Assembly (NCBI RefSeq): GCF_006345805.1
Contig: NC_043023.1
Location: 6,696,001 to 6,760,000, forward strand
DNA: 64,000 nt
DNA from: Octopus sinensis
Taxonomy: Eukaryota
Direction: 5' to 3'
In this document: in pieces, positions 400 through 58,616 of the stretch
How positions within the stretch are numbered: the first letter of the stretch is position 1
How the letters are laid out: every line of letters begins with the position of its first letter
Translations under genes and position numbers: made by a program
The notes under the pieces: generated by a model
The model's input: the letters and a program-made list of their open reading frames with translations, nothing else
Told to the model about the DNA's origin: nothing
Databases searched by the model: none

Positions 400-434
<35 letters not shown>

Positions 435-483
435 TGTATGATATATGTATACATGTATATCTTTATATATATGTATATATATA

Positions 484-521
<38 letters not shown>

Positions 522-779
522 GGTTTTTATCATGATAAATGTATTATAAGCACCTGGTCCTACCGCTTAAGTTTCAAATTTAGTTCATGTAGTTTCTTCA
601 ATAAGAACAATCATGATTTTATTTCTGTAAGAAATATTGTTTAATTCTATTTGATTATCTATTTAACTATTATTGTTATTATTGTTGACCTGAGGAGTGA
701 CTATACTTTTAAATTGAATTGTTTTTCGATTAAATTTAAATACAATGTGGCTATACAACACAATGTGTGTGCGTGTGTG

Positions 780-828
<49 letters not shown>

Positions 829-911
829 GAGAATTTACAAAAATGAAAGAAAAAGACAGGTGGTGTAGAAAATAAACATATGTATTAGTATAACGCTCGG
901 GAATTGAAAAA

Positions 912-7603: not shown

Positions 7604-8228
7604 TATAATGTATATACACACACACATACATATATACACACACAAACACAAGCGCACACATGGTCAGTACCATGTTTTATATATATATATATATATATAA
7701 ATAATAAGGCAGCTAGCTGGCAGACACGTTAGCGCAGTGGGCGAAATGCTCAGCGGTATTTCGTCTGCCGTTACGCTCTGAGTTTAAATTCCACCGAGGT
7801 CGACTTTTCCTTTCATCCTTTCAGGGTCGATAAATTAAGTACCAGTTACGCACTGGGGTCGATATAATCGACTTGATCCCTTTGTCTGTCCTTGTTTGTC
7901 TCCTCTATGTTTAGCCCCCTGTAGGCAATAAAGAAATATTTATACATATATATATAATTCACTGACACTAAAAGTGACCAAGTGTTTAGTGAGCAGCAGC
8001 ATTGCTAGAAATAAGAGTCAAAGACTCCTTAGCCACAAGAAGTCACATGTTCTATTTGAACAGACAGGAGACAACATCTCCCCATCTTGATTGAGCTGCA
8101 TTAGATTAACATACTAATTTCGTATAAGAAATTAATACTCGTCAGTAATGCTTACTGCATCACAGGTGGTGCTGCTGAAATCACACCTGTTAGCATTATA
8201 GGAAATACCATTGAAATACCATAGAACC

Positions 8229-11444: not shown

Positions 11445-13495
11445 AACAGATATAACTAATGATGTGTGCACACACACACACAAACTCTGTTTGAGCAGAC
11501 ATAACTAATGACATACACAGATTTAGCCCACATAGGCTGTTTGTGGTTAAACAGACATAACTAATGATGCACAATCTCTGGTTAAACAGCAGACATAACT
11601 AATGACACACCTAAATGCAAAGGAATCTCAGGTTTAGCAGACATAACTAATAACACACACACACAGACATAACTAATCGCAAATGCACAAGGATGATCTC
11701 TGATTAACAGACATAACTAATGACACACACAAACAGAAAGAGAATTCTGGCTACACAGACATAACTAATGATGCACAAAGACACACAGACTATCTATACA
11801 CAAGTTAAATAGATCCGGTCAGACATAACTAATGACACACACACAGACATAACTAACCGCATATATAGAGACAATCCGGTTAAAAAGACATAACTAATGA
11901 CACGACTAAATGCAAAAACAGCTCAGATTTAGCAGACATAACTAACCGCATACATGCTGAGACAATCTGGTTAAAAAGACATAACTAATGACACAACAAA
12001 ATACAAAAATGGCTCAGATTTAGCAGACATAACTAACCGCATACCTGCTGAGACAATCTGGTTAAAAAGACATAACTAATGACACACACACAGACATAAC
12101 TAACCGCATACATGCTGAGACAATCTGGTTAAAAAGACATAACTAATGACACAACTAAATGCAAAAAACAGCTCAGATTTAGCAGACATAACTAATGACA
12201 CACATAGACATAACTAACCGCATACAGAGACAATCTGGTTAAAAAGACATAACTAATGACACAACTAAATGCAAAAAACAGCTCAGATTTAGCAGACATA
12301 ACTAATGACACACATAGACATAACTAACCGCATACAGAGACAATCTGGTTAAAAAGACATAACTAATGGCACAACTAAATGCAAAAAACAGCTCAAATTT
12401 AGCAGACATAACTAATAACACACACACACAGACATAACTAATCGCAATGCACAAGGATGATCTCTGATTAACAGACATAACTAATGACACACACAAACAG
12501 AAAGAGAATTCTGGCTACACAGACATAACTAATGATGCACAAAGACACACAGACTATCTATACACAAGTTAAATAGATCCGGTCAGACATAACTAATGAC
12601 ACACCTAAATGCAAGGAAATTTAGCAGACATAACTAATGACACACACACAGACATAACTAACCGCATATATAGAGACAATCCGGTTAAAAAGACATAACT
12701 AATGACACGACTAAATGCAAAAACAGCTCAGATTTAGCAGACATAACTAATGACACACACACAGACATAACTAACCGCATACATACAGAGACAATTGGTT
12801 AAAAACACATAACTAATGACACAAATAAATGCAAAAACAGCTCAGATTTAGCAGACATAACTAACCGCATACATGCTGAGACAATCTGGTTAAAAAGACA
12901 TAACTAATGACACACACACAGACATAACTAACCGCATACATGCTGAGACAATCTGGTTAAAAAGACATAACTAATGACACACACACAGACATAACTAACC
13001 GCATACATGCTGAGACAATCTGGTTAAAAAGACATAACTAATGACACAACTAAATGCAAAAAAACAGCTCAGATTTAGCAGACATAACTAATGACACACA
13101 TAGACATAACTAACCGCATACAGAGACAATCTGGTTAAAAAGACATAACTAATGACACAACTAAATGCAAAAAAACAGCTCAGATTTAGCAGACATAACT
13201 AATGACACACATAGACATAACTAACCGCATACAGAGACAATCTGGTTAAAAAGACATAACTAATGACACAAATAAATGCAAAAAACAGCTCAGATTTAGC
13301 AGACATAACTAATGACACACATAGACATAACTAACCGCATACAGAGACAATCTGGTTAAAAAGACATAACTAATGGCACAACTAAATGCAAAAAACAGCT
13401 CAAATTTAGCAGACATAACTAATGACACACACACAGACATAACTAATCGCAAATGCACAAGGAAGATCTCTGATTAACAGACATAACTAACGACA
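11445..13495. repeat. complex minisatellite with invariant core AGACATAACTAA and higher-order structure
   Basis: Core recurs every 20-45 bp with a small set of reused linkers. Confidence 0.95.
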
Positions 13496-26448: not shown

Positions 26449-26595
26449 ATGTTTACATCGTTTTTGATGCCAAGTTCTCACATCAGTAAATGTTCCATGG
26501 TCATTTACTAGGATTCCTTTAACCCTTTAATATTTGGATTTTCCTGTGAAATGTAATACTTGTTTATTTATATTGTTTTAAATCAATGCATGTAA

Positions 26596-27291
26596 AATGC
26601 ACCAATCCGATTGTGGCCGTTGCCAGCCTCGCCTGGCACCTGTGCAGGTGGCACGTAAAAAGCACCAATCCGACCGTGGCCGATGCCAGCCTCGCCTGGC
26701 ACCTGTGCAGGTGGCACGTAAAAAGCACCAATCCGACCGTGGCCGATGCCAGCCTCGCCTGGCACCTGTGCAGGTGGCACGTAAAAAGCACCAATCCGAC
26801 CGTGGCCGATGCCAGCCTCGCCTGGCACCTGTGCAGGTGGCACGTAAAAAGCACCAATCCGACCGTGGCCGATGCCAGCCTCGCCTGGCACCTGTGCAGG
26901 TGGCACGTAAAAAGCACCAATCCGACCGTGGCCAATGCCAGCCTCGCCTGGCACCTGTGCAGGTGGCACGTAAAAAGCACCAATCCGACCGTGGCCGATG
27001 CCAGCCTCGCCTGGCACTGTGCAGGTGGCACGTAAAAAGCCCAATCCGACGTGGCCGATGCCAGCCTCGCCTGGCACCTGTGCAGGTGGCACGTAAAAAG
27101 CACCAATCCGACCGTGGCCGATGCCAGCCTCGCCTGGCACCTGTGCAGGTGGCACGTAAAAAGCACCAATCCGACCGTGGCCGATGCCAGCCTCGCCTGG
27201 CACCTGTGCAGGTGGCACGTAAAAACCACCAATCCGACCGTGGCCGATGCCAGCCTCGCCTGGCACCTGTGCAGGTGGCACGTAAAAAGCA
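26596..27291 (+). repeat. 63-bp tandem array (about 11 copies) within an RTE 3' UTR ending at about 27450
   Basis: Unit tgccagcctcgcctggcacctgtgcaggtggcacgtaaaaagcaccaatccgaccgtggccga, near identical. Confidence 0.97.
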
Positions 27292-28736
27292 CCCACCACA
27301 CTCATGGAGTGGTTGGCGTTAGGAAGGGCATCCAGCTGTAGAAACACTGCCAGATCAGACTGGAGCCTGGTGCAGCCTTCTGGCTTCCCAGACCCCGGTC
27401 GAACCGTCCAACCCATGCTAGCATGGAGAACAGACGTTAAACGATGATAATAATGAAATTAATCATGCACTACCTTGTAGTTTAGAGACATCGAAGATGT
27501 GATCCCTTAGTTTTAGAAAGACATTGTAGGGTTCAGGTGAGAGGTCAGATCTGGTCAGTTTCAACATAAAACAGGTTAAATAGTTTGGTCAGTTATGGCC
27601 GGTTTGAATGCTAAACGGTTACTCTCTTTACTCTTTTACTTGTTTCAGTCATTTGACTGCGGCCATGCTGGAGCACCGCCTTTAATCGAGCAACTCGACT
27701 CCAGGACTTATTCTTTTGTAAGCCCAGTACTTATTCTATCGGTCTCTTTTGCCGAACCGCTAAGTAACGGGGACATAAACACACCAACATCGGTTGTCAA
27801 GCAATGCTAGGGGGACAAACACAGACACACAAACACACACCAAGGCTTTGGTTGGTCCGAGGCTATAGTAGAAGACACTTGCCCAAGGTGCCACACAGTG
27901 GGACTGAACCCGGAACCATATGGTTGGTTAGCAAGCTACTCACCACACAGCCACTCCTGCGCCTAATTTTAATTTCTTTTTCTTTTGGTTTACCAAGGCC
28001 TAATTCCCCATAGGAGGGGGTAGCCACAACATGACCCACACCTGGCATTCCATTCATTTCCCAAACTCAAAGAGGTGAACCCCGTCTCATGCTTGGGTCC
28101 AGGCATAGAAAGCAAAAGCCTGACATCATATGCTGGTTTACCCCCGCCACATCATGCTGGTTCTGTACCCCTTTGAGGGTTAAAATAACAAAGCCAAAAG
28201 TTAACACACACACACATATAGGTGCAGGTGTCGCTGTGTGTAATGAGTTTGCTTCCCAACCATATGGTTCTGGGTTCAGTCCCACTGCACAGCGCCTTCT
28301 ACTATAGCCTTGGGCCAACCAAAGCCTTGTGAGTGGATTTGGTAGACGGAAACTGAAAGAAGCCCAGACCCAGGAAGACATGTGATGAGGTGGTGAGAAA
28401 GGATCTACAGTTTTTGGGACACACAGAGATGACGACAGGGAACCGAGACCCCTGGTGGTTTGCTGTGCTTTGCATACAGGCTTATCCCCTGCAAACCTCT
28501 CAGGCTGAGTATCCCTAATCATGTGGGCTCATAGGTGCTGGTGTCATGTAAAAAAACACTCATACCAGTGCTGAGCAAAAATACCCAGTACACTTTGTAG
28601 AGTGGGTCATATTAGGAAGGGCACATGCCAAGACAGACGAGGACCCTGAACAGCCCTTCAGCTGTTCAGCTCCTGTCAAATTGTACAACCCATGCCAGCA
28701 TGGAAAAACGGAAATTCAATGATGATGATGATGATG

Positions 28737-32497: not shown

Positions 32498-32545
<48 letters not shown>

Positions 32546-32621
32546 TATATATAATATATATATATATATATAAATAAATGAAAGAATGGAGTCGAACGAA
32601 GATGTTAACAAAATTCCTTTA

Positions 32622-32703
32622 CTCTCGACACATGTTTCGAAGACAGCATATTTTCATTCCGAAGGAATAAAGGGTGCATTATGCAATCTTCTCATCAGGA
32701 AAG
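32622..32703 (-). ncRNA. type I hammerhead ribozyme, canonical core
   Basis: ctttc-CTGATGA-GAAGA...TCTTC-GAAA-C-ATGT-GTC^gagag; stem II extends through GCATA/TATGC and carries a C(TTCG)G hairpin. Confidence 0.85.
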
Positions 32704-32942
32704 AAAAGGAGCCTCTCTCAACAACAGGACAAACAAAAATTTCGATGATTGCTTACATGGCAACCAAAGCGATAATGAGTCTAATATATTCATTCTATAT
32801 CGAGTGAAAAAACAGTATGGACGATTTGTTTTGGAGTCTAGCAATACCATGTACGCCTGTGAGGATTTACTTTCCCAATGAAACTCGGTTTTTTCTCAAA
32901 CCTGTTATAATGTGATACAAGTCTTTGGTGTGGCAATTGTAC

Positions 32943-33035
32943 GCGGCTGAAGAAGGCTTTTGATCTATCTGTTATATCAATTATGCATTGATATAAGAAT
33001 AAGTTGTTCAATAAAGCCTGAAACATATGTACCGC
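32943..33035 (+). ncRNA. type I hammerhead ribozyme, canonical core
   Basis: gcgg-CTGAAGA-AGGCTTT...AAAGCCT-GAAA-CATATG-TA^ccgc; GUA cleavage triplet; inner hairpin tatatcaat/attgatata. Confidence 0.85.
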
Positions 33036-33073
33036 AAAATCCTTTGCATCTTGTTTTTCATTTACTTCATTTG

Positions 33074-33133
<60 letters not shown>

Positions 33134-33135
<2 letters not shown>

Positions 33136-33532
33136 GCGTAGCAGTGGCTCTGTGGTAAGTAGCTTGCTTACCAACCACATGGTTCCGGGTTCAGTCCCAC
33201 TGCGTGGCACCTTGGGCAAGTGTCTTCTACTATAGCCTCGGGCCGACCAAAGCCTTGTGAGTGGATTTGGTAGACGGAAACTGAAAGAAGCCCGTCGTAT
33301 ATATGTATGTATGTGTATGTGTATATGTTTGTGTGTCTGCGTTTGTCCCCCCAACATCGCTTGACAACCGATGCTGGTGTGTTTACGTCCCCGTAACTTA
33401 GCGATTCGGCAAAACAGACCGATAGAATAAGCACTGGGCTTACGAAAGAATAATTCCCGGGGTCGAGTTGCTCGACTAAAAGGTGGTGCTCCAGCATGGC
33501 CGCAGTCAAATAACTGAAACAAGTAAAAGAGT
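33134..33532 (+). mobile_element. tRNA-derived SINE family A (about 400 bp, CORE-like domain, internal microsatellite); more than 20 copies, e.g. 2321-2712, 15682-16082, 17992-18392(-), 38650-39086, 39530-39918(-), 46325-46735, 48830-49245, 61525-61900(-)
   Basis: A box tggctgtgtggt, B box ggttcagtccc, accttgggcaagt domain, aaaagagt tail. Confidence 0.92.
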
Positions 33533-56705: not shown

Positions 56706-58616
56706 TTTTCTGTCCCTTCTATCATACTTTAACCTCTCAACACCTAACACAAAGCCACCCACCCTTATATAATGTGAGGTAACCATGTATCTCCTCCCCA
56801 GCAGGACACCTTCCTGTCCCTTCTATCATACTTTAACCTCTCAACACCTAACACAAAGCCACCCACCCTTATATAATGTGAGGTAGCCATGTATCTCCTC
56901 CCCAGCAGGACACCTTCCTGTCCCTTCTATCATACTTTAACCTCTCAACACCTAACACAAAGCCACCCACCCTTATATAATGTGAGGTAGCCATGTATCT
57001 CCTCCCCAGCAGGACACCTTCCTGTCCCTTCTATCATACTTTAACCTCTCAACACCTAACACAAAGCCACCCACCCTTATATAATGTGAGGTAGCCATGT
57101 ATCTCCTCCCCAGCAGGACACCTTCCTGTCCCTTCTATCATACTTTAACCTCTCAACACCTAACATAAAACCACCCACCCTTATATAATGTGAGGTAGCC
57201 ATGTATCTCCTCCCCAGCAGGACACCTTCCTGTCCCTTCTATCATACTTTAACCTCTTAACACCTAACACAAAGCCACCCACCCTTATATAATGTGAGGT
57301 AACCATGTATCTCCTCCCCAGCAGGACACCTTCCTGTCCCTTCTATCATACTTTAACCTCTTAACACCTAACACAAAGCCACCTACCTTTATATAATGTG
57401 AGGTAGCCATGTATCTCCTCCCCAGCAAGACACCTTCCTGTCCCTTCTATCATACTTTAACCTCTCAACACCTAACACAAAGCCACCCACCCTTATATAA
57501 TGTGAGGTAGCCATGTATCTCCTCCCCAGCAGGACACCTTCCTGTCCCTTCTATCATACTTTAACCTCTCAACACCTAACATAAAACCACCCACCCTTAT
57601 ATAATGTGAGGTAGCCATGTATCTCCTCCCCAGCAGGACACCTTCCTGTCCCTTCTATCATACTTTAACCTCTCAACACCTAACATAAAACCACCCACCC
57701 TTATATAATGTGAGGTAGCCATGTATCTCCTCCCCAGCAGGACACCTTCCTGTCCCTTCTATCATACTTTAACCTCTCAACACCTAACATAAAACCACCC
57801 ACCCTTATATAATGTGAGGTAGCCATGTATCTCCTCCCCAGCAAGACACCTTCCTGTCCCTTCTATCATACTTTAACCTCTCAACACCTAACATAAAACC
57901 ACCCACCCTTATATAATGTGAGGTAGCCATGTATCTCCTCCCCAGCAAGACACCTTCCTGTCCCTTCTATCATACTTAACCTCTCAACACCTAACACAAA
58001 GCCACCCACCCTTATATAATGTGAGGTAGCCATGTATCTCCTCCCCAGCAAGACACCTTCCTGTCCCTTCTATCATACTTTAACCTCTCAACACCTAACA
58101 TAAAACCACCCACCCTTATATAATGTGAGGTAGCCATGTATCTCCTCCCCAGCAGGACACCTTCCTGTCCCTTCTATCATACTTTAACCTCTCAACACCT
58201 AACATAAAACCACCCACCCTTATATAATGTGAGGTAGCCATGTATCTCCTCCCCAGCAGGACACCTCTTCCTGTCCCTTCTATCATACTTTAACCTCTCA
58301 ACACCTAACACAAAGCCACCCACCCTTATATAATGTGAGGTAGCCATGTATCTCCTCTCCAGCAAGAAACCTCTTCCTGTCCCTTCTATCATACTTTAAC
58401 CCCTCAACACCTAACACAAAGCCACCCACCCTTATATAATGTGAGGTGGCCATGTATCTCCTCTCCAGCAAGAAAGTATGATAGAAGAGACAGGAACAGG
58501 TGTCTTGTTGTGAGGGAGATACATAGCTACTTCCCCATTATATAAGGGTCGGTGGCTTTATCTTAGATGTTGAGAGGTTAAAGTATGATAAGGGGGACAA
58601 GAAGAGGTTTCTTGCA
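56706..58616. repeat. 104-bp tandem array (about 17 copies) plus about 1.3 inverted diverged units at 58474-58616, in TOMM22 intron 2
   Basis: Period measured 56811 to 56915; the right end is the reverse complement of the unit. Confidence 0.97.

Follow-up and report, generated by a model that had tools for sequence, protein, structure and literature searches.

The locus lies in the middle of the window, i.e., of the whole stretch of DNA that was analysed (64,000 nt), and consists of 501 bp at positions 32575–33075. Two arms are joined there at their 5' ends, and each runs outward into a (TA)n tract. The arms are the truncated 3' ends of two Penelope-like families, termed family A and family B. 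The features are as follows, in window coordinates.

32498–32576, no strand: left (TA)n tract, which receives the 3' end of family A
32575–32780, minus strand: family A arm, 206 bp, the 5'-truncated 3' end of a Penelope-like element filed as Hydra-like
32616–32709, minus strand: type I hammerhead motif of family A, also present in the family copies
Within it, minus strand: core at 32698–32692; closing pair G10.1-C11.1; GUC triplet at 32629–32627; predicted cut at 32627/32626
32781–32786, no strand: filler CTAATA, 6 nt, at the 5'-to-5' joint
32787–33075, plus strand: family B arm, 289 bp, the 5'-truncated 3' end of a Penelope-like element filed as Hydra-type
32943–33035, plus strand: type I hammerhead motif of family B
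Within it, plus strand: core at 32947–32953; pair A10.1-U11.1; GUA triplet at 33029–33031; predicted cut at 33031/33032
33074–33134, no strand: right (TA)n tract, which receives the 3' end of family B

A preliminary description of this DNA placed a short unit between two (TA)n tracts, and the tracts at 32498–32576 and 33074–33134 bear this out. The unit is not the single 500-bp element proposed there; it represents two separate family ends. The filler between the arms resembles TA sequence, and it ends in four bases that are inversely complementary to the four with which arm B begins. The family A arm is without an optional tail of ~150 nt that is present in other family A copies. A dispersed repeat, which we take to resemble a SINE, is to the right of the TA tract at 33135–33530, and similar sequence is found beside many sampled loci. 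The window also has minisatellite arrays at 12068–13451 (110 bp, 12 copies), 26588–27293 (63 bp, 11 copies) and 56710–58470 (104 bp, 17 copies).

The minus-strand hammerhead noted earlier at the left end is present, with a CUGAUGA core from position 32698 and the segment GAAA-C-AUGU-GUC, which contains the GUC site. Helix II of this motif is 53 nt and has a UUCG hairpin. The plus-strand motif displays helix I GCGG/CCGC, a CUGAAGA core from 32947, a helix II of 66 nt and the segment GAAA-C-AUAU-GUA. Its place, strand and GUA site are as first described, but the term canonical does not hold throughout, as positions 10.1-11.1 are A-U and not G-C. Both motifs have the CUGANGA and GAAA core, an NUH triplet, three helices and an open helix I. 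Folding into the hammerhead conformation costs 2.0 kcal/mol (A) and 0.6 kcal/mol (B) above the minimum-energy fold. The two ribozymes are unrelated in sequence, as had been stated; the longest identical stretch between the arms is 9 nt (E 0.29). One family in two diverged copies was considered as well and is ruled out by the comparison of the arms, where the best local match is these 9 nt.

A strict hammerhead descriptor gives three matches in the 64-kb window, and both locus motifs are among them. A third descriptor match is weaker, has a long loop 3 and lies at 8104–8145 (minus strand) beside a 26-bp tandem array. A relaxed descriptor gives one match in 515 kb of shuffled loci vs 229 in 1.11 Mb of real loci, the latter being element-enriched and overlapping, hence with some matches counted twice. 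It is confirmed that the hammerhead motifs at the locus exceed chance expectation. At the gathering score, no Rfam model has a match in the window. Between 32300 and 33600 there are 31 Rfam matches at E ≤ 10, none of them a hammerhead and most of them TA-driven. The 229 matches (some double) are from 287 loci and represent 15 sequence families, many of them with fold-back pairs (F2, F3, F5, F9). One family, F4, is present as four tandem repeats of ~565 bp with a hammerhead (L191:2172–4051, minus strand; L089:438–1229), which may be a retrozyme-like array or tandem pseudo-LTRs.

The closing pair of the family B motif is variable. Among 73 family B motifs, positions 10.1-11.1 are A/C in 30, A/A in 22, G/C in 19, G/U in 1 and A/U in 1. 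The copy in the window has a private C>T change at 33019, a CpG site, which produces its A-U pair, and the tidy look of this motif is partly owed to that change. A mismatch (A/C or A/A) is found in 52 of the 73 motifs, yet copies with such a mismatch are plentiful. The family B ribozyme may be under relaxed selection, or it may tolerate the change at 10.1-11.1. Helix III consists of 2 bp and a 4-nt loop in both motifs, and the loop of B is self-complementary, that of A almost so. This is a dimer-type architecture. Hammerheads of the dimer type depend on a dimer and have weak activity in vitro (PMC4209133), and each locus ribozyme would be expected to cleave weakly unless a second copy is on the same RNA strand, which is not the case here.

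The two arms belong to separate families of high copy number. Exact 23-nt motifs of the two occur 878 times (A) and 690 times (B) in the genome (G000), with 0 occurrences of the reversed controls. A search with the whole 501 bp gave 3340 candidates, of which 40 were scored; 44 other places are listed, and all 44 cover the right part only, none starting before base 210. With the left 216 bases as the query there were 2112 candidates, and a separate set of 45 other places is listed for them. The family A arm is 96–99% identical to 29 other loci over bases 1–206, and the family B arm is 89–95% identical to 29 other loci over bases ~213–501. Beyond the point of the joint, each family in its other copies runs on into its own upstream sequence. 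The A|B joint pattern is present at one place in 2.72 Gb. The preliminary description had called for a genome search to see whether the halves travel together, and they do not: other copies occur only separately, as Penelope-like 3' ends.

The joint is spanned without mismatch by contigs of two sequencing runs, X1 (32713–32839) and X2 (32713–32827), which are from different studies, X2 with another organism label and X1 possibly from the assembly's own sample. An assembly artefact at the joint is ruled out by these bridging contigs. Insertion of one element inside the body of the other was also considered and rejected, as there is no A or B remainder on either flank. Pieces of the arms were found in three runs that are guessed to be RNA, none of the listed pieces spanning the joint. 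The listings for X3, X4 and X6, which are cut short and so say nothing on absence, likewise have no piece across it.

No Penelope-like ORF was found inside the 64-kb window, and the identity of the families comes from copies elsewhere. Family A lies downstream (3') of an ORF that has motifs of RT and, at its C-terminus, of GIY-YIG, and a 3' UTR connects the two (L061). It forms the inverted ends around RT/GIY-YIG ORFs in L061 and L063, and such an ORF is upstream of the family A 3' end on the same strand in L061, L063 and L151. The Pfam GIY-YIG match of the family A ORF is weak (E 0.72, below the cut-off), and the assignment is based on the motifs. Family B elsewhere continues upstream into a long 3' UTR and then a GIY-YIG ORF, which is on the same strand as the 3' end in L098, L138, L139 and L147. 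The distance from the family B 3' end to the endonuclease ORF is ~240 bases in L147 and larger in the other three. The endonuclease regions of the A and B proteins are about 37–39% identical. Next to the family A insertion in L061, at 433–888 (minus strand), is a GIY-YIG fragment of another Penelope-like clade (Pfam E 0.0007).

Several protein motifs are informative for classification. DKT is present in place of DKG in family A (L061, L151) and, for B, in a sister family (L140, L142, L143). There is no CCHH motif, and CxxC and CxH are found around the endonuclease E and N in A (L063) and in B (L139, L144, L147). Near the N-terminus, where the Hydra clade has RWK, the sister ORFs have RWA or RWL. 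Insertion in (TA)n and a hammerhead are common to both families. A CxCx5C linker before the endonuclease is present in family B (L139, L144, L147) and absent from family A (L061, L063) and from six of six long sister ORFs (L289–L294). On motif evidence, family B is filed under the Hydra clade and family A as Hydra-like; the latter is called only Hydra-like because neither it nor the six sister ORFs have the linker. An N/S-rich insert precedes the endonuclease in the family A lineage and is similar to the N-rich inserts described in PMC3846280. The CxCx5C linker has been associated with TA targeting (PMC8557442), and the family A lineage, which ends in TA without the linker (L061:3201–4637, L063, L289–L294), could serve as a test of this idea. 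Near-identical open Hydra-type ORFs are found in L140, L142 and L143 (842 aa) and in L289, L290 and L294 (906–908 aa). The occurrence of such ORFs at several loci suggests that the families were recently active.

Two truncated 3' ends, one from each of two different Penelope-like families, are joined head to head in this stretch, and the joint is single-copy. The probability given to this is about 0.95, which covers the identity of the arms, their separate high copy numbers, the link to RT/GIY-YIG ORFs, and a joint that is unique and real. A head-to-head fusion of two Penelope-type termini was one of two interpretations put forward in the preliminary description, and it is supported by the presence of separate families with RT/GIY-YIG ORFs upstream.

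The second interpretation was retroviroid-like, with the locus as the genomic copy of a self-cleaving RNA of ambisense type that replicates by rolling circle. Viroid-like RNAs have ribozymes in both polarities, unit-length redundancy and a compact, highly self-paired fold; they propagate as one unit and form circular RNA of both polarities in cells. The first of these properties has a counterpart here, i.e., one hammerhead motif per strand within 500 bp. However, both halves are ends of families that bear ORFs, and the single-copy joint shows no propagation as one unit. The halves recur only separately, a result that the preliminary description had itself named as a refutation. Neither a tandem nor a terminal repeat is found at the locus, and with a single cut site per strand no unit-length RNA could be released. 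The fold of the 501 nt is no better than that of shuffled sequences (z -0.75; 21 of 100 shuffles as good), and the cut-to-cut stretch modeled as a circle is 61% paired in either polarity and forms no compact rod. A retroviroid-like origin is considered very improbable.

Outward pairs are common within each family. Among the first 100 listed sites of each family (100 of 878 for A and 100 of 690 for B, from contigs C1–C3 only), neighbours less than 10 kb apart form 16 outward pairs in A and 15 in B vs 0 and 1 convergent pairs. A further 120 loci were sampled from listed sites outside these same-family outward pairs (60 of 68 for A, 60 of 70 for B). An inverted piece of the same family is at the 5' end in 38 of the 60 A loci and 20 of the 60 B loci. 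Next to the 5' end there is a microsatellite in 8 A and 23 B loci, other sequence in 13 and 17, and a gap in 1; these classes were assigned by script, with some misses seen by eye. Outward pairs are the normal insertion form of these elements, and only the mixing of families is unusual here. The outward-facing ribozymes follow from this geometry, each being near the 3' end of its element in the sense strand. Given an inverted 5'-truncated copy, both strands should carry a ribozyme wherever the two arms are long enough to include the motif.

Arms of the same family are very similar to each other. They show 0.004 diagnostic differences per site in family A (30 pairs) vs 0.046 in random copies, and 0.009 in family B (21 pairs) vs 0.099. 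Because the arms share subfamily-diagnostic letters, an ordinary inverted arm comes from the same source and not from any available RNA. Fillers of 3–18 nt are present in 6 of 30 same-family joints and overlaps of 0–10 nt in 22, the remaining 2 being alignment artefacts. There are 7 diagnostic differences between the inverted arms of L307 and 5 between those of L277, and the two pairs are candidates for arms from different subfamilies.

The locus has the layout of these same-family pairs, with the family B arm in the usual place of the inverted arm of family A. This layout is consistent with a single insertion on two templates, in which the two ends of a cut TA tract would have been primed on RNAs of different families and the truncated cDNAs joined end to end. 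We regard such an event as possible, with odds somewhat below even. The joint has no TA tract, and its short filler has parallels in the 6 same-family joints with fillers; the flanks are without other A or B sequence; and the divergence of the arms from their relatives is similar, 3/201 for A and 5/277 for B (Fisher p = 1.0, a weak comparison biased by the use of top hits). The L307 and L277 pairs would also agree with two templates. The single source of most same-family arms argues against it, as does the TA-like filler, and the A and B proteins are distant, as seen in their endonuclease regions.

Neighbours of different families were found as well. Another hammerhead family is within 400 bases in 10 of the 120 sampled loci (5 convergent, 4 tandem and 1 outward), a count confined to the 15 hammerhead families of the survey. 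Convergent neighbours require separate insertions, and nesting is thus common. The proportion of about one outward case in ten would fit the smaller share of exposed 5' ends. The predominance of convergent or tandem neighbours (9 of 10) is a further point against a single event with two templates. Among the sites listed, the closest distance between A and B is at least 85 kb. Between the families in the tandem mixed neighbours L182 and L234, no TA run exceeds 8 bases.

Three more direct outward mixed joints are present, one in the systematic sample (L187) and two outside it (L048/L288 and L100), and these favour the use of two templates. None has a remainder of the truncated element past its partner. 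The joint in L187 (900–1750) is direct, with no TA between a 444-bp tandem of family F7 and an inverted family A piece of 75 nt. In the other two joints (L048:~2980, which is L288:~270, and L100:~4200), the 5' end of family F6 meets that of A and that of B, and both times F6 starts within the first half of its hammerhead core.

The mixed neighbours also bear on a different history, in which two neighbouring insertions of opposite direction were brought together by a later deletion of the intervening DNA. Such neighbours are common, and at the locus the truncation of the two arms falls at one point, with no remainder of either nearby. But 5' truncation is normal for both families without any deletion, and the joint has a filler and no clear microhomology. 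A deletion is an improbable origin.

The account that we favour, at slightly better than even odds, is that one (TA)n tract received two insertions in succession, which produced the joint. The endonuclease of one family would have cut the TA tract, and its RT would have copied about 200–300 bases of the RNA 3' end. The other family would later have inserted in the opposite direction, in the TA remnant beside the 5' end of the first copy, and end joining would have left only CTAATA between the arms. The joining of A and B in one tract is likely explained by the insertion of both families into TA repeats. The (TA)n at the ends of both families, the TA-like filler and the mixed neighbours in 10 of 120 loci all point to successive insertion, although the mixed-joint counts are small, with 1 outward case in the systematic sample. 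Target-site duplications are unreadable in TA tracts. Several features are less easily accommodated: the layout of TA and arm followed by arm and TA equals that of a single same-family insertion, the joint is without a TA tract, and neither arm has an inverted partner of its own. The similar divergence of the arms, as a single event would require, is a weak point on the same side, and the tandem mixed joints could themselves represent template jumps.

If successive insertion is accepted as the most likely reading, the locus matters little beyond explaining away an apparent viroid hallmark. It also gives a caution, in that Penelope-like insertions in TA-rich genomes routinely give rise to a ribozyme on either strand. 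The significance would be larger if two templates were used in one event. The inverted arm of Penelope-like insertions has been proposed to originate by self-priming on an antisense template (PMC3846280), and mechanistic work on these arms has been called for (PMC8557442). With two templates, the inverted arm could have a second RNA as its source, in addition to fold-back or self-priming on one template, and the Penelope-like machinery could join templates across families. The mixed joints (the locus, L187, L048 and L100) would then be natural tracers of inverted-arm origin, and, if they are single events, the mechanism would be testable from genomes alone. This genome has many hammerhead-bearing families, some with open ORFs of 842–908 aa, and is suited to such a test.

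Compared with viroid-like and retroviroid-like RNAs, the locus is similar in having a hammerhead motif on each strand and differs in that both halves are from retrotransposon 3' ends. Non-LTR retrozymes consist of repeats in tandem on one strand, from which circles are released (PMC7229834; bioRxiv 10.64898/2026.07.22.740005). The locus resembles them in being small, non-coding and of low GC, with a type I hammerhead and a relation to Penelope. A non-LTR retrozyme is ruled out, as there is one motif per strand and no tandem same-strand repeat at the locus.

The hammerheads are similar to the type I hammerheads of metazoan Penelope-like elements, which have a long helix II, a short helix I and a helix III of 2 bp with a palindromic or near-palindromic loop suited to dimers (PMC4209133). 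The G10.1-C11.1 pair is highly conserved in the metazoan motifs (PMC4209133); family A has this pair, and family B differs in that only 19 of 73 motifs have it.

In Penelope-like elements with an endonuclease (EN+), insertions typically have an adjacent inverted 5'-truncated copy (PMC8557442, PMC3846280). The locus is like these insertion units in that 5'-truncated 3' ends are joined 5'-to-5', face outward, have no optional tail and are located in a microsatellite. It differs in that the arms are from two families and consequently form neither an inverted repeat nor a hairpin. No mixed-family head-to-head Penelope joint was found in a literature search that covered few subscription papers and, for bioRxiv, the main texts. 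The earlier suggestion that the arrangement is undescribed in cephalopods stands for the mixed-family joint only. A hammerhead-bearing element has already been published, Hydra-1_Obim of Octopus bimaculoides, which has a (TA)n preference and a sense-strand hammerhead (PMC8557442, supplement).

The Hydra clade is characterised by DKT, the absence of CCHH, CxxC and CxH, the CxCx5C linker, (TA)n insertion and a hammerhead (PMC8557442). The families at the locus share with it DKT (for B, as seen in its sister family), a C-terminal GIY-YIG with CxxC and CxH, (TA)n, and a sense-strand hammerhead near the 3' end. The order of motifs, compared by eye, is as in Hydra-1_Obim, and the sequences and hammerheads themselves are different. 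The family A lineage differs from the clade by its missing CxCx5C linker. Further differences from the clade are the longer ORFs (842–908 aa, in the sister families), the N/S-rich inserts and copy numbers of hundreds to thousands.
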